Under the pieces are notes generated by a model. It had not been told where the DNA came from. It was given only the letters and a program-made list of their open reading frames with translations, and searched no databases. Shown here piece by piece: positions 4,034-38,539 of a DNA stretch of 64,000 nucleotides. Origin of the DNA: a virus (Duplodnaviria > Caudoviricetes). Numbering within the stretch: position 1 is the stretch's first letter; each line of letters opens with the position of its first letter. The position numbers and the translations under genes were made by a program. The DNA lies in IMG/VR virus record IMGVR_UViG_3300037512_001928, positions 43,218 through 107,217 of that record; one strand, given 5' to 3'.

Positions 4034-4539
4034 ACCGTATCCTCCTTATATCATGCCTGCAATATCCATGACGCACAGCACCAGATTCATGAGCCACCCA
4101 ATGCCAATCAGCATGGATCCAACCTTGAACGACCTTGATTTCATATCGACCATATCAAACAGGATAATCTGTAATCCAAGGAACATTAGACATGTCATAA
4201 CATTTATCCTTTGCATTTTGCCTTACACCTCCCAACAGCCTCGATCAGCTCATCCGTATTTACAAATACGAGCTGTTTCACCTGCTTTCCCTCGCTGTCG
4301 ACAATCTCTATACACACCTCTTTCGGAGCGCAGTCCTGATTGGTCACAATCAGCCCGCAGTCGTTCGTCGCAATAAACTCGGGATCACTGAACACACACT
4401 TGGTAAACATCTCATCTTCCTTTCTGGTTTGTGTATTCCATTTACAGTAGGTTTCTGTATTATACAGAGGTTCCTCAGTCAACCAGTCTTCCCCGTATAT
4501 CGGACATTTGTAATGGTATTTCAGATTTGTTGCCATGGC

Positions 4540-5079: not shown

Positions 5080-6949
5080 TTATTCATAGTCCTTGTCAAG
5101 ATCAATCATCGCATTAAGCGTAGGAAGCACCATCTCGTCAAACGACTGTATCGTCAGCTGGTTCCACGCCAGCATCACATTGAGAAGCGCCGCCGCAATC
5201 TTCGACTGTTGTGATTCGGTCAGCTCGCCCAGCACAGCCCGTAGGTTCTTGATGCTTTTTTCGAGGAGGCGGCTCCCGTCCGCCTGACTTACATACCCGC
5301 GAAGCACCACCGGCGTATTGTTCAGCACATTCCTGACTTCGTCATAATGGTCGTGCTGAATCGCAGCGCCCTCAACGTCTCCGCGCCGGAGCAGATCGTT
5401 ACGTGACTGTTTTATCATTGAAGTCCTCCCATGGGCGTAGTATCGCTTCCGGATCCATCTTTGCCCCACACGCAGGGCAAACTTCCACCGGCGTCTTTGT
5501 CAGCGCCTGACATATACTGCACTGATATGCGAACGCAGCGTAGATCGGAGAATCAGTATTGCCCAGATTGCTGATCCACCACCCGACCCTTTCATTTTCA
5601 TCCATCGCCAATCAGTCTCCTTAGTTCGTCCTTTGCCGCCAGGATTCCGGCTTCATCCATCTCCCGGATCGCCGCCACCAGCATCCTGAACTCGTTGGTA
5701 ATGTTGATCCACTCACCCTTCGGTTCCTGCGTCATCTCCGCCTCCACGAATCTTCATAACCTCCGCCGTCGACATATGCTCCACCAGACGCTCGTACGTT
5801 TCAAGCATAAACCGGATCGCGGCGGGACCTCCGTAATCGCGGTAAAGCCGCCAGAACCCGGGAAGCTTTCGCAGAAAGTAAATCATCCTCTGCTCTCCTC
5901 CGTCTCCAGCGATTCCAGAAAATCCGCCAAGCGCGTATCCTGCCTCACTCTCTCCGCCGCAATCTGCGCGTCCGTCAGTCGGAATCCAAGCTTGCCCATC
6001 TTCTCCGCCGCAATGTCCGTCCCGAAGATGTTTGCCATAATCGAGAGAAGATGCGTATCGCTCAGGTGATACTGCTCCCGCCGGTTCAGCTTACCCATGA
6101 CCCAGCACCGCCCCAATCCGCACAGCGTACATGATGAAGCCCAACAGCACGATCGCGCTCATCGCCGCAACAAACCGCCCGTCCTTCCCGTACCGCACCG
6201 CCGCCACGAACAGCGCGACACACGCAGCCGCCAGCACGATGCATACCCACATGATCACCTCCAGCGTCATCCTCGAATCACCCATGAAAAGACTCATCAT
6301 CCGAAAATACCTCCTCCATGTCCCGTCAGAACCATCACCAGCAACGCCGCCATCATCAGATACATCGCGGAAATAAGGAACCCAAGCGCTCCGCCCTTCC
6401 GGTACCCAATCCCCTCCTTCCAGCACATCCACGAGATCCGCAGCCCGCAGGCCCCCGCCGCAACAAACAGCACCGACAGCACCCAGCACATCAGCTTCAT
6501 CACGATCTGCACAAACCCCAGCCAGCTCATCCGTTCCCTCCTTCGTCTTTCTTATGACCGAACTTATAATCCTTCGCTCATTTCAGATCATCCTCCAGCC
6601 CCGCATGCCGTTTCACATATCTCGCCACCATATCGCTGATCTCACCGCAAAGGTTATCCACGCACTTCTTCCCGGCATAGTTCAGCCCGCCGCACAATTC
6701 CTTAATCCGGTTCAGCCTCGCCGCCACCTCCTCGCTCAGTCTTACATCAAGATCCTCGTCGTACAAATTCAACCATCCTCTTTCTTCCTGTTTATTCAAT
6801 CCCGCCGCAGTCGGCGCGGAATGTAAATACCGGCAAGGTTGAGAAGATCTGCAACTCCTGCACCGCAGCTGTCTCCCTGATTCCCGCTGTCCTCCACCGG
6901 AGCCACCCCGTCCCGCCGCCTCGGCATCCGTCCCCGCCGAGACCATCAC
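5080..6949 (-). other. Cluster of short hypothetical genes, several membrane-spanning
   Basis: Overlapping short ORFs with GGAG RBSs; strongly G-rich coding strand. Confidence 0.6.
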
Positions 6950-8664: not shown

Positions 8665-9063
8665 TCACTTCACCTCCTTTTTAAAAACTTTCATCATAGA
8701 TATGCATCTAAACGATATAATTAATTATAGTAGAGATACCTATAGATTGTAATCTATGTTGTGGCGGAAACCTTATATCCGTCAATGGCTCTGCGCGATT
8801 TTTCCACTCTTTCCTAAATAAAAGTGAGTTTGGAAGAGAGGGGCGGCGGCTATGCCAAAAATACGTCTTCTTCCTGACAAGAAGGGTTTCTCGCCTCCAC
8901 CAACTAGTATATAGAGAGAATGAGGTTGCGGCGGCGGATCCCTGCCCTGCCATGCCCAGGGTAATAAAAATTGGTATCAATGTTTTTGTTTAATGAATAA
9001 ATAAAGAGTATTATATATATAGGTAGGGGTCGCAATCGAGGTTGCGGCGGAAACCCATACATA

Positions 9064-10174: not shown

Positions 10175-10609
10175 CTTGCCTTTTTGGCTTGCAAGCCTTG
10201 TTTTATAAGGCTTTGAGCGTTTTTATATTTGATCAAAGGAATCGATTTTCCAAAACCTGTCAAGCTTTTTCTGCATTAACGTTAATGTGCCTGTATTTTC
10301 AAGGCTTCCAGAGCTTGTCAAGGCCCATTTCGCAAAAAAAAACCAAAAAAACCTAAAATTTAATATTTGACCGTTGTAAAATAAGGCTTTGCGGGTATTT
10401 ATTAATTTTTTTGTTACAATTATGTTACGAAGTGCCTGGAAGCCTTGTAAAATAAGGCTTTGCGGGCATTTTGGCAAAATCTGCCGAAAAAATCCCTTCC
10501 ATTATATGCGCGTAAAGCGTGTGCTTAAAACGTGTGATATACTTGAGGCGGTCCCCGTTATCAAAAAAACAAGTCCGGCAGGGGACGCCGGCAGGAAGGA
10601 AACAATCCC

Positions 10610-11233
10610 ATGAAAAAGATTCGCAAGATGAGCGGAGCAAATAAGCCCGCCCCCGCTCCCGCCCCCGTTGTGGTAAAGCCCGCCCCCGCTCCCGTTGACA
10701 AAGTTGCGGTACGTACGCTATACAGTCCTGCATTGTCAATCCCTACACAGGGAAGAAAGGAAGAGAAACCCATGGAAAAGACTGGAATCGAATTCATCTC
10801 AAACTATCCGCGGAAAAATGAGAGAGTGCTAATTTGGGATATCCGTGAATCGATCGTCAATAGTGATAAACACAAATTGTTTTCCCTTGTGAAAACATGG
10901 TATGTTATGGCAAAGAAGGATATCCCTTCCGATACAATCGTTGTCGCGATTGCGGGCTTGCTCTTGCGCATGGTGACAACTGGAAAAAATGCATCCGTAA
11001 AGAGTGAGAAGGTTGCTACCATGGACATTTTGGGTACAGGACGCGTAAAGGCGTGGTTATATACCATTGCCGACGGACGTTTTGAGAATATCGCAACGGC
11101 GGAAAATCGTCCGGAAGAAAAGCCCGTCAAGGCGCGCCGTTCCAATGTTTCCCGGAAAAAGGTATCCGAAATGACAAGGGACGAATATCTTGAACACATG
11201 GCGCGCCTGTATGATGAGAAGCATTCCGCCTAA
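10610..11233 (+). CDS. Hypothetical early protein with PAPAP low-complexity N-terminus
   Basis: RBS; extended -10 TGATATACT near 10535; alternative start at 10772. Confidence 0.6.
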   Translation: MKKIRKMSGANKPAPAPAPVVVKPAPAPVDKVAVRTLYSPALSIPTQGRKEEKPMEKTGIEFISNYPRKNERVLIWDIRESIVNSDKHKLFSLVKTWYVMAKKDIPSDTIVVAIAGLLLRMVTTGKNASVKSEKVATMDILGTGRVKAWLYTIADGRFENIATAENRPEEKPVKARRSNVSRKKVSEMTRDEYLEHMARLYDEKHSA

Positions 11234-11299
11234 TCCAAAAAGCGCCCGCATCGGGCGCGATATACAGATGGACGCCGTCTGTATATCATGCCCGATGAA

Positions 11300-11389
11300 C
11301 AAGATTCGATTCATTCGGCTTGTGGGCTTGTTCGCAAGATTCGATTCATTCGGCTTGTGGACGTGTCAAGATTCGATTCATTCGGCTTG
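11300..11389 (+). repeat. Three identical 23-bp hairpin repeats CAAGATTCGATTCATTCGGCTTG
   Basis: Copies at 11300, 11335 and 11367; spacers of 12 and 9 bp. Confidence 0.95.
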
Positions 11390-11399
11390 ACAATCGGTA

Positions 11400-12150
11400 T
11401 CCCTGCCCCGGAAAATTGCATAAGTAGTTTGATGCCCTAAAAACAGACGTTGCGGGCATTTGAGAACGGCGTGATTCGTACGGTTACAATCGCGACTCGT
11501 TTGAAAGCAACAACGTGAAAGCAAGTTATTGTTTCGCCCTGCTTGTTAGTAACGTTGTGACGAAAAGCAATGATTCCGGTTAGTTAGTACGGTTATAAAA
11601 ACCGTAACCGCTCACTTGTGAGAGAGCGCAAACGCAGGAATTGCGCATGAGCAAGTAGTGATTCATCAGTCACGGTAAAGAATTGATTTGACGGCGATTC
11701 CTTTATGGTGGTGTGGGCGCGGGCTAACATGATCCCGCTATGCAATGGGCGTTTGTCGAACGGTCTCATGATACCACATAATAACATGGCGCATGACTCA
11801 AATCTTGTGAGAGTCTCGTGTCGATCCTCCCCGCGTTTGCGTAAACTTGTGCAAGTTGCAAGCGTAGAAGAATCCGCGAACGGCAGTAGAACCTGCGACC
11901 TGAAAAGGTGGAAACGCGGTGCACACCCGAAAACGGGGGCAAAAAGGAACGGTACTGCATGCGATGCTGATATGCGATAGGCGTACGGTGCAGGGCGTTG
12001 TCCGGGGGGCTGAAGTGCGTACTATGTACGTAGATAGGCACACGCTAAAAGGCGAGCGGTGAAATATAAGTGTGCAAATTTGTGGCGCTACCGTTGAGCT
12101 GAAGAAGAAACGTGAACGTGCAAGCAGGATTCCGCGATTGGTTTATCGAA
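11400..12150 (+). ncRNA. Candidate large structured ncRNA (~750 nt)
   Basis: No RBS-supported ORF; nested long-range helices, GAAA tetraloops, AGUA loop-E-like motif. Confidence 0.65.
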
Positions 12151-12208
12151 CTTTCTATAACGGATTTTCTATAACAGAAAATCCAGATTAGGAAGGGAGA
12201 ATTCAGAT

Positions 12209-12454
12209 ATGGCAGAAAAAGCAAAACGGAGATCTGGGGACAGGCATAGTGCCGGATATCAGGCGGAATATCGCAAAGAGAATTACAAGTTTATGGGATT
12301 TTATTTGCGGAAAGATTCCGGTATGATTGAAGGATTACAAATTGTTGCCAAAGCCAGAAAAATCTCTGTGAGCGAATATATCCGTTGCGCTGTTGAAAAT
12401 CAATTGGCACTTGACGGATACATACCCGGAGAACCGTTTATTGCGGAAAATTAA
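12209..12454 (+). CDS. Ribbon-helix-helix DNA-binding protein
   Basis: FMGFYLRKD..IEGLQIVAKARKISVSEYIRCAVE. Confidence 0.6.
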   Translation: MAEKAKRRSGDRHSAGYQAEYRKENYKFMGFYLRKDSGMIEGLQIVAKARKISVSEYIRCAVENQLALDGYIPGEPFIAEN

Positions 12455-15400
12455 TCCGCAATTTTTTTATGGTGTGCTTTGCATACACCCAGTGGAGGAC
12501 GCGGAGCGGAATTTTCCCTCCGCGTTTTTAATTGGGTGCATGCCCAAATAATATATGGCGAAATGCCGGAAAGAGAGAAACAAAATGGAAAACAAGATCA
12601 CTATCACCCTGAACATGGCGGAAGCAAAGAAGGCTACAGTCAAATTCGTGGAACCCGTTGCGAACGAATACGTGCCGGAGAAGCTCGGAACCTTGTATTT
12701 GAACAAGGTCATTCTCGCCGAGAACAGCTACAACGGCAAGCCCATCACAATCGAAATCACGAAGGGCGCGGATCCGGACGGAATCGTATTCATGCCGGAA
12801 AAATGCACGAAGACAACTGTCAAATTCAATGAAAAGGTAGAAAACCAGTTCTGCCCCGCCGTGATCGGAGATCTCTACATCCCGAAGTACACCCTCGCGG
12901 AGCTTGCGTATGCCGGTGAACCCATCAGCCTGAACATCCTATTCGAGGACTAATGCGGAGGTGCAGAAAACAATGCCGGAGTTTTATATTCGCATTCGTG
13001 CGCATGGTGAGGTCGGAATTATTGGTGCGCAAAATGAGCGCGAAATGAATAATCTCATGCGGAATTTTACACATGATCCTGCTATTACAGAAATCACTAC
13101 CTATCGTAGAGCGGAAAATAACCCGGGAAAGTTTCATATCTGTCGGAAATAATCACAGAATCATGCGCGAATAATCCCGTTGCTCTCTGCTGATCCCTTG
13201 TAAATCCGGGGAGCGATGCGGAACGCACTAACTATTACAACTAAATCAATATGGAGGATCACGCAAATGCCTACAGGTCTTATCTTTGCACTGATCGCGA
13301 TCATCACTCCCATTGCGGGCATGATCGTTGACAATATCCGTTTCAACAAACGTATGCGGAAACTGGAGGCGGAACTTTCCGCCCTAACTCACTAATGCGG
13401 AGGAACGAGAATGAGAAAAGATCATGGTGCCACGGTCATTGTGACCAAACCTATCGGGGAAATTGGTTGCAATAATGGTAACGTTCTGACAATGGACGTT
13501 GTCTATAACCACAAGGTTGTCCGGAGTTTTACAAGCTGTGCTTGCGGACACGGCTGTGGCGGAACGGATGACTATGACAACCTCCAGATCGCGTTTAAGA
13601 ACTGGATCTGGGAAGAAGCCTAATAAGGAGGGATTATCATGAAACGTACAATGCGGAGATCTATTCGCAACGCGTTCGTATACGATGCGGACGTTGCGAT
13701 TGTGGAACTGGATGAGAGCTATCAGCCCCGTCATGCCGATGCAAACTGGATCATTGCGGAAATTGAGTCTGCGATTGGTACGCTCTGCGGACTGCTTGCT
13801 ATTACCGCTGAGAACATGGCGGAAATTGCCACGGCGATAGTAAAGAAGCACAAGAAGCCTGTGTGTGTGCCGGAAACCAAGCGCCCCATTGCAAGCATCC
13901 AGAAGATCGGCAAGTACAAACTCACGATTCCAATGTTTAATGCGGAATTTATCCCCGCACGATCCAGAGCGTTGGAACCTATCTGCACATTCGATTACAC
14001 CTTTTCGGGAGGCTACCGCGATGTGGCGTGACGAGTACGAGAGTCAATCCATGGCGGAAAAGGTAGCACTGTGGTGCGCGGTTCCGCTTACCCCTGTGGT
14101 CTTTTTCCTGTTGTGGTATCTAATCGGAGGATAACATGCCTGACAATGAAATGATCGCCGAGATCAAGATGCAGATCGAGAAACTCCGCCAGGAATTAAA
14201 GGCGGAAACCGACGGTGAGCGGAGAAGGGAAATCCTCGCGAACATCGCTGTGTTCCGCGAAGAACTGACCTATACCATTTGCGACCTGTTCGATTAAGAA
14301 GGAGGAAAAGAAAATGTTCAGTTGTGTTACAGAAGGGCAGCGTTTATACCTGTCCGCATGGGATTTTAATTCCTGCAGAGTGCTTGGCTCGTTGGCGGAA
14401 ATCGTCCGCAACAATGGCGGGAAAGTAAAGCCTGCCCCGACCATCATGGCGAATAACCGTACGTACGAACCGGACGCGGAGCCGGTGCCGATCTATGGTC
14501 ATGGTTACATCTCGTTTACGCTGGACGGAGACTACTACTACTTTCAAGTAGATAGTAATCCGTTCTTCGATCCGATGATCCTGAAAGCTCGGATCGATAA
14601 CGGGAAATATCGCGAAGTATATTTGGAAGCATTCAGCAGGGAATGGATCTATGATTGCATGTTCCAGATCGCAAATGATGCGGAGATCCGGGAGATTGCG
14701 GAGATTCTGTTCTCCCTGCTCATTAAACGGAAGTGCTGTGCACCTGTTCCGCCGGAAAAGCACAAGGTAAAGGTTGAGAATCTGTATGATAACGGATGGC
14801 ACTGGGAATATAAGTCGGAAAGTGTGAAGTACAGGAAAGTGGAGGTTTGAACGAGATGACAGGACTGCGGAGGTGGGTAGCGTGAACAAGAATGTTGTGA
14901 AGCGTGATGAACTTCTCTTCGGCGGATATGAGCAGGAAAAATACTGTGGCGGAATTCGGGACTTCGATTGCCTGCCGGAAACGATACAGGAACTTCTGGA
15001 TAAGGACTTTATTGATCCTGAGGGATGCCAGAATTGCTCCCCGTCTGTTAAGGAATTTATGGAGATTGCAAAGACCGAAGGAGTTGAAGCGGAGTTTGGC
15101 GGATACGCAGTCTCACCGCACAGGGAAGACTACCGGGTGACCATCACGGATATCACAGTCGAATTCGATGCAGCAAATACAGCCCTGTTGATTGAAATGA
15201 TTGGACACCTGCGGTATGCAGACGACTTCAGCATGGATTTGTGTGACGGAAAATGGCGGATTTACGCTTGGTGGGATTGAGGTGCAGAAGATGAATTCAT
15301 ACAAGGTTCGGCTCCGCTTTTATGACCGTATGCCAAAAACTGTATACCTGCAAGCGGAAAACAATGCGGAAGCTTTCAGCAAGGCGCACCGCTTCATCAC

Positions 15401-34439: not shown

Positions 34440-35606
34440 ATGAAGAATTACTGCGTTTATCATTTACACAGTGATTTATCTCTTCTGGATTCCACCACCA
34501 ACTTTAAGGATTATGTCAACAAAGCGGTCGAGTCAGGGATGACCGCCATTGCCTCGACCGAGCATGGGCTTCCGCGATCGTGGGTTGAAAAGAAACTGTA
34601 CTGCGATGAGAAGGGGATCAAATTTATTCACGGTGTTGAGATCTACCTGACCGAGGCGTTGGAGCCAAAGGTTCGTGACAACTATCATACGATTCTGCTT
34701 GCGAAGAACATCGAAGGTGTGCATGAGCTGAACCGCCTGATTGAATTGTCTTCCCGTCCCGATCATATGTATTACAGCAACCGGCTTTCCTTTGATGAGT
34801 TCCTGGCGATATCGTCGAACATCATTAAGATCAGCGCGTGCCTTGCATCTCCGTTGCGTAGGCTCCCGCCGTATCATGAGCGCTTCCGCGAACTGCTGAA
34901 ACATTATGATTACCTCGAAGTTCAGCCGCACAGCAACGAGGAACAGGCTGATTACAATCGTAAGCTGATGCATTATTCAGATACGTTTGGAATCCCGCTG
35001 ATCGCCGGTACGGATACGCATTCGCTGAATCAGTACAAGGCTGAGTGCCGTGATATTCTGATGTGGCGCAAGGAGCAGTTCTATCCCGGCGAGGAAGGTT
35101 TTGACCTGACGTGGCATTCCTGCGATGAACTACTGCATGCGTTTCAGGTTCAGAATGCACTGCCTCCTGCGGTGTATCTTGAAGCGATCGAAAATACAAA
35201 CGTTATGGCTGATAGCGTCGATAATTTTGAGCTTAATAAAAGTATCAAGTATCCAATCCTTTACGGATCGCCGGAGAATGATACAAAGAAACTGCACGAA
35301 GTTGTATGGCGTAAGCTTGACGAAAAGCTTGAAACCGGGATTATTCCACGGGAGCAGGAACAGGGATTCCGCGATGCGATCAGTGAAGAATTCCGGGTCT
35401 TTGAAAAGATCGGTATGAGCGGGTTCATATTATGCATGCATGAACTTCTTTCATGGTGCCGTGATTCCGGGATGTATATCGGACCCGGACGCGGTTCTGT
35501 TGGCGGTTCCCGTGTCGCGTACGTTGCCGATATTATCGACATTAACCCTGAACAGTGGAACACAAACTTTGCAAGGTTTGCAAACGAGGACAGAAAAGAA
35601 ATAGGT
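34440..35606 (+). CDS. dnaE: DNA polymerase III alpha, exon 1 (389 codons)
   Basis: PHP motifs HLHSDLSLLD, TEHG, TDTH; GPGRGSVGGS. Confidence 0.92.
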
Positions 35607-36610
35607 CGAACGATGGCCTACGTTGGCTGAGAAGCCTCCGAAAAAATATCCATTGAATTGCTGGGACACCCTGAGAGCCGTCAAGCTACAACGTGCGGAT
35701 GAAAGACGCCGGAGCGTGAATGCCTGAGAATCTGACGGATTGGGCAATCAGCAGCGAAACTCCGAATAGGAGAACGTTCAACGACCATCCCTTTGGGAGT
35801 ACATCGCAAGCGCGATGGAAGTGGTGGACATCCTTCGGGATGAAGATATGGTCTGTGCTTTATGGAAACATAAAGGGTGAAAACCTGCCCGGGGTAGCGC
35901 CTGGTATGTGTGTGTAAATGGTAAGGAAGGAGGTGAGTAGTTATGGGTAAAGTGAAAGATTTGACCGGGATGAAGTTTGGAAGATGGACTGTCATTCACG
36001 AAGTTGGGCGTAATAAGTCTGGCGGTGCGACATGGTTGTGTCAGTGTGAATGCGGGACTATGCGTGTATTAGATGGACGGTCTTTACGTGAACATACGAG
36101 TAAATCCTGCGGTTGTTTAGTTAAAGACCCTTCATATGTACATTGTAAACCAAATCTTAAACATGGCGGGAGAAATGAGAGATTATACCAAGTATGGCGT
36201 GGTATGATTGATCGGTGCCACAATCAAAAGAACAAGTATTATCCGTGTTATGGTGCTCGTGGTATTACAGTATGTGATGAATGGCGATATGATTATGCTG
36301 TATTTCGTGAGTGGGCGATGAGTCATGGATATGATCCAAACGCTAAGAAATATGATTGTACTATTGATCGTATTGATAATGATAAAGGCTATTCTCCAGA
36401 GAATTGTGCATGGCATAATCAAGTTGAGCAGTGTAATAACCGATCAAACAATCATATCATAACCTTCAATGGTGAGTCACACACCATTTCTGAATGGGCA
36501 AGAATGGTTGGATTAAGCAAGGATACATTGCGACGTCGGATTGAAAATTATGGATGGACAATCGAAATGGCCCTGACTACTCCAAACACACACACTGCAT
36601 AACACTTCAG
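35607..36610 (+). mobile_element. Group I intron in dnaE
   Basis: P1 TAGGT/GCCTA with U.G pair; P AATTGCTGGGA; Q AATCAGCAG; R GTTCAACGACCAT; S AAGATATGGTCT; terminal G at 36610; removal restores EIG-DIDVD. Confidence 0.93.
35943..36602 (+). CDS. Intron-encoded HNH homing endonuclease
   Basis: DLTGMKFGRWTV, YGARGITVCDEW, TIDRIDNDKGYSPENC..EQCNN. Confidence 0.85.
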   Translation: MGKVKDLTGMKFGRWTVIHEVGRNKSGGATWLCQCECGTMRVLDGRSLREHTSKSCGCLVKDPSYVHCKPNLKHGGRNERLYQVWRGMIDRCHNQKNKYYPCYGARGITVCDEWRYDYAVFREWAMSHGYDPNAKKYDCTIDRIDNDKGYSPENCAWHNQVEQCNNRSNNHIITFNGESHTISEWARMVGLSKDTLRRRIENYGWTIEMALTTPNTHTA

Positions 36611-38539
36611 GACATCGACGTGGATGTAGTTGATTCTGATCGTCCTGCAATCTTTGAGCATATCGAATCAAAGTTCGGTAAACCTTATACGGGTCGTGTC
36701 GCGGCATATGGTACGATTCAGTCCCTGGCATTTATCGACGATGTGGGCGGCGGTCTTGCAAACAAATGGGAATGGGAGCACAACCCTGACAAGTTCAATG
36801 AATCCCGGCATATAAAAATCAAAGGCGATTATGATCCTGCGAATCCGTTTACGCTGAAGCGTATCGCTGAAATCAAAGCCGCATATAAACAGGATCAGGA
36901 TGCCGCCATGGCGCGTTATCCTGAGATCTTCCGGTATTATGACGGCTTGGTCGGTACAAGAGTATCGCAGTCGATTCATCCTGCCGGGATCGTCATCTCC
37001 CCTCTTGTCCTTGACGAAGAATATGGTGTGTTCAACAAAGACGGCGAACGCTGTTTGTTGTTGAATATGGACGAGCTTCACGAGGTTGGCGCTGCGAAGT
37101 TCGACTTTCTGATCCTGAAAACCGTAACGGTTATTCGCGATTGTTATGCGCTGATGGGTAAACAGCCGCCGAGAATGCATGAAGTCAACTGGGATGATCA
37201 AAAGGTTTGGGCTTCCATGGCGTCGGATGCGAATTCCATCTTCCAGTTTGAATCCGACTTTGCTGCTGAATCCATGAAGAAATTCAAGCCCAAGTCAATC
37301 TTTGATTTATCCATGGTGACTGCGGCATTGCGTCCATCTGGAACGTCATATCGTGATCAGCTGTTTGCACATATTCCGCATCATAATCCATCAACAATGA
37401 TTGACAAGTTGTTGAGCGATTCAAATGGATACCTTATTTACCAAGAGCAGATTATTGCTTTTTTACAACAAATCTGTGGATTGTCAGGTTCTGAATCGGA
37501 TTCGACCAGGCGCGGGATCGCAAGAAAGAGGCCTGAGATACTTGAGAAAATGTTACCGCGCATTCTTGATGGTTATTGTTCAAGAAGTGATAAATCTCGC
37601 GAGGTTGCAACAAAGGAATGTCAGGAGTTCCTTCAGATTATTGAGGATGCAAGCTCATACATGTTCGGGTACAATCACAGTATAAGCTACTGCCTCCTAT
37701 CCTATATGTGCGGTTATCTCCGTTACTACCATCCTCTCGAATGGATTGCCGCGTTCATGAAGAATGCCGCCAACGATGATGATATCAAAACGGGTAAACA
37801 GATGGCAAAGGATCGCGGGATCACATTCACGCGTCCTGTCTTTGGTCAGGATAACCGCACGTATTATATCGACCATCAGCATAAGTCCATCTCCGATTCG
37901 ATCTCCAGTATCAAAGGTGTCGGGCTGAAGGATGCAGAGGCAATTCTGAGGATCTACAATGATGGCAACTACAGTAACTTCATCGAAGTTCTCTATCAGA
38001 TGATCATGACTGAGAATGCGCTGAACCGGGCAGTCATCGAAACGCTGATCATGAGCGATTACTTCCGCGAGTTCGGATCCCGTGGTAAACTGATGCATCT
38101 CGCCAGCGAGGTTTTTGATGGCAAGAATCGCCTGACAAAAACGCTGAAGCCAGCCACGGTTTATGATCGCCTTGGTAAACTCTCGCTCGAAGAACAGCTG
38201 ACGCCGGAGTCCGATTTTACCGCGAAGGAAATTATCCAGTTTGAGATCTCCCACTACGGCGAACCGATCTCGGTTATTGCCACGGCAACCAACCAGTATG
38301 CCGTTCTGACGGTGGATACAAAGTATTCGCCGAAGATTGAGCTGTACAATCTGACCAAAGGTACTCGTGGTCTGATGAAAGTCCGCAAGCCGTATTTCAA
38401 TAAGAATCCGCTGGCTGTCGGGGATATGATTGCAATGATTCGCTGGCATCCTGATCAGGCGTACAGTTTCAAGGACGGTCAGCGTGTGGTCAAACCCGGC
38501 GTGAAGGATCTGTGGTTGGATGAGTATCGTATATTATAA
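36611..38539 (+). CDS. dnaE: DNA polymerase III alpha, exon 2
   Basis: DIDVD, HPAGIVI, KFDFL, FQFES, YQEQ, FGYNHS..Y; spliced product 1031 aa. Confidence 0.92.
   Translation, partial: DIDVDVVDSDRPAIFEHIESKFGKPYTGRVAAYGTIQSLAFIDDVGGGLANKWEWEHNPDKFNESRHIKIKGDYDPANPFTLKRIAEIKAAYKQDQDAAMARYPEIFRYYDGLVGTRVSQSIHPAGIVISPLVLDEEYGVFNKDGERCLLLNMDELHEVGAAKFDFLILKTVTVIRDCYALMGKQPPRMHEVNWDDQKVWASMASDANSIFQFESDFAAESMKKFKPKSIFDLSMVTAALRPSGTSYRDQLFAHIPHHNPSTMIDKLLSDSNGYLIYQEQIIAFLQQICGLSGSESDSTRRGIARKRPEILEKMLPRILDGYCSRSDKSREVATKECQEFLQIIEDASSYMFGYNHSISYCLLSYMCGYLRYYHPLEWIAAFMKNAANDDDIKTGKQMAKDRGITFTRPVFGQDNRTYYIDHQHKSISDSISSIKGVGLKDAEAILRIYNDGNYSNFIEVLYQMIMTENALNRAVIETLIMSDYFREFGSRGKLMHLASEVFDGKNRLTKTLKPATVYDRLGKLSLEEQLTPESDFTAKEIIQFEISHYGEPISVIATATNQYAVLTVDTKYSPKIELYNLTKGTRGLMKVRKPYFNKNPLAVGDMIAMIRWHPDQAYSFKDGQRVVKPGVKDLWLDEYRIL

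Follow-up and report, generated by a model that had tools for sequence, protein, structure and literature searches.

To our knowledge, few of the large RNAs encoded by phages have a known function. The HK022 put RNA is about 70 nt long and forms two stem-loops with no enclosing helix, and the P4 CI and P1/P7 c4 RNAs (Rfam C4) are immunity RNAs processed from the leader of an early operon. RNA-based control of early transcription is represented by very few examples, namely put, EAR and conAn2 (PMC8191782). The last of these occurs in Gram-positive conjugative plasmids as regions of 260-600 bp with strong sequence divergence between elements; it has been reported to act only in cis, and its essential features are a 16-bp GC-rich tract and a stem-loop called SL1 (PMC8191782). 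ROOL and GOLLD are phage-borne structured non-coding RNAs with many helices and GNRA loops, whose function was unknown when they were first found (PMC12286853).

The locus considered here lies in the window, meaning the whole 64,000-nt stretch of DNA that was analysed, which makes up the final 64 kb of a phage record from IMG/VR that measures 107,217 bp and has an estimated completeness of 94%. The gene content of this phage includes an AEP primase, a DnaE split by a group I intron, a primase-helicase, an anaerobic ribonucleotide reductase, an RNA ligase, a DUF2828/vWA protein and tyrosine recombinases. At about 8.7 kb the genes switch strand, from minus on the left to plus on the right, and the cumulative GC-skew minimum is found at 8814. 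Near the head of the rightward gene arm, 2.4-3.4 kb from the GC-skew minimum, the strand switch and the AEP primase gene, there is a gene-free gap of 975 nt (11234-12208, no strand assigned), which under a crude gene model ranks third by length in the 107-kb genome. The gap separates gene X (10610-11233, + strand, in the rightward arm), which encodes a conserved 207-aa orphan and lies directly upstream, from the first gene after the gap (12209-12454, + strand), whose 81-aa product was assigned to the ribbon-helix-helix (RHH) type by a Pfam RHH_1 match with E=0.001, just below the cut-off. The initial annotation had read positions 11400-12150 as an RNA of about 750 nt, possibly of a new class. 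Comparison with relatives reduced this visually ornate 750-nt fold to about 215 nt: there is a conserved structured RNA within those coordinates, but its size is ~215 nt (11795-12010, hereafter domain 1), or perhaps up to ~415 nt should it extend as far as the RHH start codon. Comparative sequence analysis makes it very probable that the 3' part of the gap is a conserved structured RNA of the + strand, and the best reading of the element is that of a new, narrowly distributed structured RNA belonging to no catalogued family.

The absence of genes was borne out over the full gap. Codon log-odds trained on the long ORFs of the genome are negative in all six frames and positive in both flanking genes, a near-identical 54-kb ENA contig carries no gene calls in the gap, and ARAGORN found no tRNA in 10500-13000. 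Alternative genetic codes (4, TAG=Q, TAA=Q) were rejected, none of them opening a convincing frame. A small protein gene missed by annotation, such as one on the minus strand across domain 1, would account for the stop-free minus-strand stretches of 76-142 codons that span the domain in every lineage, for the recurrence of the peptide-like block VHRVSTFSG...SRIL, and for the single occurrence of TTA, CTA or TCA on the + strand of domain 1 where 6.8 are expected. However, the recurring peptide is nothing but the conserved nucleotide core in translation, the reading frame from the G-run block to the motif block is not maintained between the window and the relative L013, and the indels (1, 2, 19, 25, 29 and 37 nt) are mostly not multiples of 3. 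Moreover, substitutions show no 3-periodicity (0.48-0.58 per codon position, with no third-position excess), codon log-odds are negative, no start codon or RBS is conserved, and the gene callers of three sources are silent here. No protein-coding signal is conserved in any frame and the open minus-strand frames are not coding; we regard a small gene as extremely improbable. At 11796-12021, all three minus-strand frames are stop-free in every lineage, which may stem from avoidance of pyrimidine-UA steps in the RNA.

A blastn comparison of the gap with phages in GenBank and plasmids in PLSDB found no relatives. Locus searches with single proteins or alignments in IMG/VR, JGI metagenomes and GTDB genomes gave only one useful contig, of 1.3 kb, and two exact-pattern scans had no match at all; the exact-pattern matches L009 and L010 (GTDB) and L016 (IMG/VR, inside a 601-aa ORF) were dismissed as chance, scoring 12-17 bits with the covariance model R1 and missing helix P2 (see below). 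The 122-aa protein whose gene follows the RHH gene served as the query of a profile search, and the relatives were reached through the contigs of the members of its protein cluster. In this way the comparison came to cover four lineages, with two truncated contigs. The sources of the contigs are the runs SRR29188438, SRR29188450, SRR27755830 and SRR30829481 and the ENA assemblies ERZ27256849, ERZ27291695 and ERZ27291697. L012 has a gap of 816 nt and shares its lineage with the fragments L003 and L004; L013, L014 and L015 form one lineage with gaps of 902-904 nt; and a third relative, L008, is a contig that begins 60 nt before the conserved core.

The order of gene X, gap, RHH gene and a gene of 122-128 aa is common to L012, L013, L014 and L015, the gap keeping its genomic place and a length of 816-975 nt across the window lineage and these relatives. 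The homologues of gene X encode 157-207 aa, are always placed directly before the gap and share 33-37% protein identity between lineages. RHH homologues are present in all relatives with 41-83% identity to that of the window (83% for L012, 41% for L013 or L008). In the distant relatives L006, L007 and L011, a gene of 260-326 aa precedes an RHH-like gene of 62-65 aa and the element is absent. The possibility that the gap holds a decayed gene was rejected, because the 260-326-aa proteins of these three contigs give no tblastn match to it; they also lack any match to protein X. Before that gene, positions 1-621 of L006 and 1-1095 of L011 are uncalled and dissimilar to the window gap, and contain open minus-strand frames of 160-207 codons. 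Four independent metagenome contigs from related phages (L002, L003, L004 and L008) break within or beside the non-coding region, which may be due to low coverage or to strain variation or repeats halting the assembly.

Nucleotide conservation differs along the gap. The variable 5' half (11400-11785, no strand assigned), which the initial annotation had included in the RNA, aligns at random level, with a global identity to relatives of 47-53% versus 46-52% in shuffled controls, blocks shared with L012 and L013 never exceeding 8-12-mers and no excess folding, so that its membership in the RNA is unsupported. Domain 1, on the other hand, is conserved at 59-66% identity, comparable to the DNA of the flanking genes (56-68%; the RHH gene DNA of the window is 81% identical to that of L012). 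The window and L013 share a 257-nt match with 69% identity (E 8e-28), though their flanking proteins are 33-41% identical. A core at ~11864-11924 gave BLAST matches of 58-64 nt, 81-84% identical, to L008 and L012, and the similarity to L008 holds although the adjacent RHH protein is only 41% identical. This core is recovered by covariance model R1 with 65.4 bits in L012, 82.5 bits in L013-L015 and 89.1 bits in L008. The following domain 2 (12011-12161, + strand) is moderately conserved, with 52-59% identity to relatives.

The fold of domain 1 was obtained with RNAalifold on a plain MAFFT alignment and on an anchor-curated alignment, both of which recovered the same helices, all listed here for the + strand. 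The domain starts with hairpin H0 (11795-11815), whose 5-bp stem GACUC/GAGUC closes a conserved 11-nt loop, AAAUCUUGUGA. This loop is kept on stems that change from lineage to lineage (GGUGUC/GACACC in L013, GGUAUC/GAUACC in L015 and CCCC/GGGG in L012), and three of the five H0 pairs are compensatory. The domain is closed by the long-range helix Pa, in which 11826-11833 pairs with a G-run at 12003-12009, about 170 nt apart; all its cells are paired (100%), and compensatory or G.U changes were recognized by eye in L012 and L008. Pb (11834-11840 with 11858-11864) is also 100% paired, with three compensatory pairs on alignment A7 and four on the curated alignment, and encloses a small hairpin, AACUU-GUGC-AAGUU. 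In L012, L013 and L008, the Pb-enclosed hairpin carries the loop GAUAUGCGAUAA on three unrelated stems, five of its six pairs being compensatory.

Further downstream lies a three-way-junction core (11874-11919) composed of P1 (11874-11878/11915-11919), P2 (11881-11886/11893-11897, with a bulged G11882) and P3 (11898-11901/11906-11909, capped by a GAAA tetraloop). All 56 cells of the core are paired, against 27-42% in slid controls, and it displays two G.U pairs in L012 and four compensatory pairs out of 14, a number reached in 5 of 500 shuffles. At 11969-11980 a conserved motif, GAUAUGCGAUAG, shows 0-2 changes in every lineage at the same position; it is single-copy in the window and has an extra copy upstream of the core in L012, L013 and L008. 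The leftward arm yielded no further copy of the core, nor any of the fixed motifs. Some H0-like sequence was observed outside the domain: positions 11615 and 11804 both carry CTTGTGAGAG, a partial copy of the H0 region in the variable 5' half (11607-11650 versus 11786-11815), and ATTGCGCATGA at 11640 resembles ATGGCGCATGA at 11786, which hints at an old local duplication.

The base pairs of domain 1 covary. On A7, pairing holds in 90.6% of 287 cells, with changes on both sides in 22 of the 63 pairs, while shuffles gave 9.4 +/- 2.1 compensatory pairs (0 of 500 reaching 22) and slid controls 32-50% paired cells with 0-8 compensatory pairs, a contrast that is inflated by the derivation of the structures from the same alignments of four lineages used for counting. 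In a column-shuffle test, domain 1 had 19 compensatory pairs versus 6.8 +/- 2.3, and its consensus energy had a z of -7.2. Domain 2 includes a helix formed by 12049-12058 and 12088-12098 and has a consensus folding z of -3.3 (12011-12208 tested), its 7 compensatory pairs not being above the 6.9 found in shuffles. Compensatory change thus exceeds the controls in domain 1, and single-sequence stability does not: the minimum free energy of 11400-12150 is -237.7 kcal/mol on the + strand versus -236.6 +/- 7.3 in shuffles (z -0.16) and has a z of -0.53 on the minus strand, and 120-nt sliding windows within it range from z +1.25 to -1.9 (+) and from +1.75 to -2.1 (-). The z for 11880-12208 is -2.08, and the only strong local structure of the region (z -3 to -5.6) is at 11200-11350, outside 11400-12150.

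The initial annotation had preferred the + strand, and this preference is supported by an excess of G.U over A.C cells (41 versus 13), by the fact that L012 retains P1 solely via two G.U pairs, by the GNRA (GAAA) loop, and by a consensus energy of -111 on the + strand versus -96 on the reverse complement. Its by-eye fold fared less well, being no better than shuffles as a whole. Every one of the complementary words that it listed does occur at the coordinate given, but the long-range architecture drawn from them is mostly not conserved among relatives. ACCT-GAAA-AGGT (11898-11909) is real and covaries, being P3. GCAGTA at 11883 had been paired with TACTGC at 11953, yet its GCAG instead pairs with CTGC at 11893-11896 in the covarying P2, and 11953 belongs to a window-specific insertion. 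The hairpin CCCG-AAAA-CGGG (11926-11937, + strand) is an insertion of the window only, contained in an 18-nt segment missing from L012, L013, L015 and L008. GAATCC/GGATTC can still pair in relatives via G.U, but overlaps and competes with P1. Neither TCGAT/ATCGA nor AACG/CGTT is conserved; GTGGTGT/ATACCAC and TACGGTT/AACCGTA are present as words, but in the unalignable 5' half (11588-11780).

The same data bear on the possibility that the conserved region works as DNA, through protein-binding sites (operators, activator, partition or replication sites) or as a folded single-stranded DNA initiation site near an origin. Such a role would fit the distance of the gap from the GC-skew minimum, the strand switch and the AEP primase gene, the two or three lineage-specific direct repeats of ~35 nt at the start of the gap, and a palindrome before the RHH gene whose sequence tracks the RHH type. 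Against it, Pa, with its distant strands, and Pb covary, and the nested three-way junction is kept by compensation, which operators do not predict; the + strand G.U pairs would be A.C on the other strand, and a GNRA loop is an RNA feature. The long-range covariation and the G.U pairs make a DNA-level element less likely, and we consider it improbable, as we do the related idea that the palindromes reflect dimeric binding instead of RNA pairing.

The relation of the element to known families was examined with cmscan and the 4227 covariance models of Rfam 15, applied to the window at gathering score, to 11100-12400 at E<=10 and to four related loci at E<=1. ROOL and GOLLD had no covariance-model match in the window, the gap or the four related loci, and group I and group II introns, OLE, HEARO, riboswitches and ribozymes had none in the gap. 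The best E-values in the gap (1.5-8.9) were those of unrelated sRNAs located outside the structured domain. The novelty claimed in the initial annotation holds in the sense that no Rfam family is matched, and in that sense alone. The sole Rfam match in the window, distant from the gap, is the group I intron at 35597-35875 (RF00028, 82.6 bits), which separates the two halves of the DnaE gene. Of these, 34440-35630 holds the PHP domain and the first part of the NTPase domain, and 36554-38539 the remainder of the NTPase domain together with the finger and HhH domains.

The element resembles ROOL and GOLLD in the traits listed at the outset, including a function not known when first found, and differs from them in that its conserved part measures ~215 nt (<= ~415 nt) and sits directly upstream of a gene without an intervening terminator. 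ROOL and GOLLD are well above either of these sizes. The element is not a 750-nt giant of their kind, since the well-supported structure extends for ~215 nt and at most for ~415 nt to the RHH start.

What follows domain 1 suggests a connection with the downstream genes. A perfect 9-bp hairpin or palindrome, GGAUUUUCU-AUAAC-AGAAAAUCC (12162-12184, + strand), is placed 24 nt before the RHH start codon. Perfect hairpins of 9-10 bp occur in every lineage, 11-24 nt before this codon, with a sequence that tracks the RHH type: CGAAAAUUCU-AUAAC-AGAAUUUUCG in L012 and L003, CUUUCAUGAU-UGAAAG-AUCAUGAAAG in L013 and CUUUCAAGAU-GCA-AUCUUGAAAG in L008. No U-run follows the hairpin at 12162-12184, and consensus scans, which can miss atypical promoters and terminators, detected no terminator-like site on the + strand between 11400 and 12208, nor any terminator between the structure and the RHH gene in L012 and L013. 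Straight after the RHH gene there are two intrinsic-terminator-like hairpins with T-runs (12440-12523, + strand); a terminator at this place was also predicted by the scan in L013, and similar T-run hairpins were seen by eye in L003 and L008. Beyond this pair, the following 20 kb has few predicted terminators on the + strand.

Upstream of H0, a weak sigma-70-like promoter candidate on the + strand (11753-11782; TTGTCG, 18 nt, CATAAT) ends 12 nt before the hairpin. In L013 the alignment places TTGCCG, 17 nt and TGTAAT at the same distance from H0, a sequence that fails the -10 rule of the scan, and L012 has only a poor match at this position; no site passed the consensus promoter scan of L012 and L013, and promoter-like sites are not enriched. 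In sum, the scans did not detect the combination of an own promoter with an own terminator or 3' end that would mark a discrete RNA gene.

These features make a role in cis the likeliest one, in a model where domain 1, transcribed from a 5' end presumably near 11789, would be part of a long 5' leader of the RHH gene and of the rightward early gene array. Through an effect on elongation, termination or translation, the leader would control transcription or translation into the RHH gene and past the terminator pair that follows it, in a manner resembling the RNA-based antitermination or leader control of HK022 put, EAR and conAn2. The arguments for a cis leader are the lack of a terminator before the RHH gene, the hairpin near the RBS, the strong terminators after the RHH gene in the window and in L013, and the weak promoter-like site before H0 in two lineages. 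The mechanism of cis control, taken separately, is a possibility that we rate slightly short of even, and we are evenly divided on the combined proposal that a conserved + strand structured RNA acts as a cis leader of the RHH and early genes. The pre-RBS palindrome could be read in two ways, as an RNA hairpin at the ribosome-binding site or as an RHH operator. Because its sequence tracks the RHH type it may be a DNA operator, and the operator reading would imply a promoter downstream of the structured domain, leaving the latter uncoupled from the RHH gene.

A serious alternative to the cis leader is a free-standing RNA acting in trans, either made alone or cut from a leader, which would either have a binding partner in the phage or the host or undergo self-assembly like ROOL and GOLLD, and which could extend 5' into the variable region. 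The covariation of domain 1 is explained equally well in this way, and the fixed-sequence loops (that of H0, and GAUAUGCGAUAG in its one or two copies) resemble recognition sites. These loops are the same whichever RHH type follows, with only 41% identity between types, and would therefore serve something other than RHH; in addition, all lineages retain a gap of 0.8-1.0 kb. Yet there is no terminator or U-run ahead of the RHH gene to mark a 3' end, conservation does not extend to the 5' 390 nt, and the conserved ~215 nt, with no Rfam match, fall well below the size of ROOL and GOLLD. We consider a free-standing RNA rather unlikely, though deserving attention. The cis leader is at least as likely as a ROOL/GOLLD-like free-standing RNA, because no terminator intervenes between the structure and the downstream gene.

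Returning to the cis leader and its described counterparts, conAn is the closest architectural parallel, the likeness being one of layout: in both, a small protein gene precedes a large intergenic RNA region and then a long one-directional operon (PMC8191782). Protein X had no detectable similarity to anything in plasmid and phage collections, Pfam or PHROGs, so that homology to ConAn1 would be conjectural; its structure model is of low confidence (pLDDT 52.7), too low for a fold search. The element would share with HK022 put and EAR the character of a cis-acting folded nascent RNA that heads early phage transcription with a terminator downstream (PMC9378689, PMC8191782), and the side-by-side P2 and P3 of domain 1 recall the two stem-loops of put. 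In contrast to put, the junction is embedded in a domain of at least 215 nt. It is also present in one copy, with none for the leftward arm, and strong Shine-Dalgarno sites make a Gram-positive host probable; sequence similarity to put and EAR is not expected. The P4 CI and P1/P7 c4 RNAs are comparable as structured RNAs from the leader of an early or immunity operon of a phage, with short fixed loops that might pair with repeated targets, but the element has no Rfam C4 match. A search for complementary targets of its fixed motifs gave none that was convincing and conserved across lineages.

More speculatively, the domain might be the core of a new class of phage RNA regulators, either a processive antiterminator (RNA-only or protein-assisted) or a trans-acting RNA, with the 207-aa orphan as partner, an idea that we hold only tentatively. 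If the antiterminator reading were true, polymerase would be committed to the whole rightward early arm; the few + strand terminators of the next 20 kb would leave little for processive antitermination to act on. If the trans-acting reading were true, the fixed loops AAAUCUUGUGA and GAUAUGCGAUAG would capture a host or phage factor. With its compact covarying junction, fixed loops, fixed place heading the early arm and adjacent conserved orphan protein, the element is a tractable candidate for a new RNA of the leader or antitermination kind, carried by phages whose hosts are anaerobic and probably Gram-positive.

A few short sequences of the region recur. CTTGTG, enriched in the gap (5 copies), and the loop word GCTTTGCAT show no enrichment across the genome or at the heads of other genes. 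The latter caps a hairpin, GGTGT-GCTTTGCAT-ACACC, that is conserved just after the first RHH terminator (window 12469-12491, L003 ~500-520, L008 ~535-556). A similar loop, AAGCTTTGCATGCC, is found in a 32-nt block identical between L012 (4487-4518) and L013 (6233-6264), which sits in the otherwise unalignable 5' halves of their gaps and has no copy in the window gap.

The start of the gap has features of its own. Just after gene X each lineage has its own set of two or three direct repeats with a period of ~35 nt (window 11300-11398, L012 ~4310-4380, L013 ~6085-6160). Their sequences differ by lineage and look distantly related, as in GATTCATTCGGCTTGTGGGC versus CGCTTTATGCGGTGGGC, and the last repeat of the window ends in TTGACA. 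A DNA-binding protein specific to each lineage, perhaps protein X, could recognize them as iteron- or operator-like sites. In the window the 35-nt repeats seemed promising partners for base pairing with the H0 region, an idea that was rejected, as the best duplex targets differ by lineage and the energies are unremarkable. The stop codon of gene X is followed by two hairpins that overlap by 10 nt (window 11242-11297) and are also found in L012 and L013, the stem sequences of both differing by lineage. The first is GC-rich (GCGCCCG/CGGGCGC in the window) and the second is a palindrome with 23-nt arms built on ATACAG...CTGTAT; together they are the sole strongly stable local structure of the region, with z reaching -5.6. 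An A-run that precedes the first hairpin, a feature of the window alone, makes this hairpin a minus-strand terminator.
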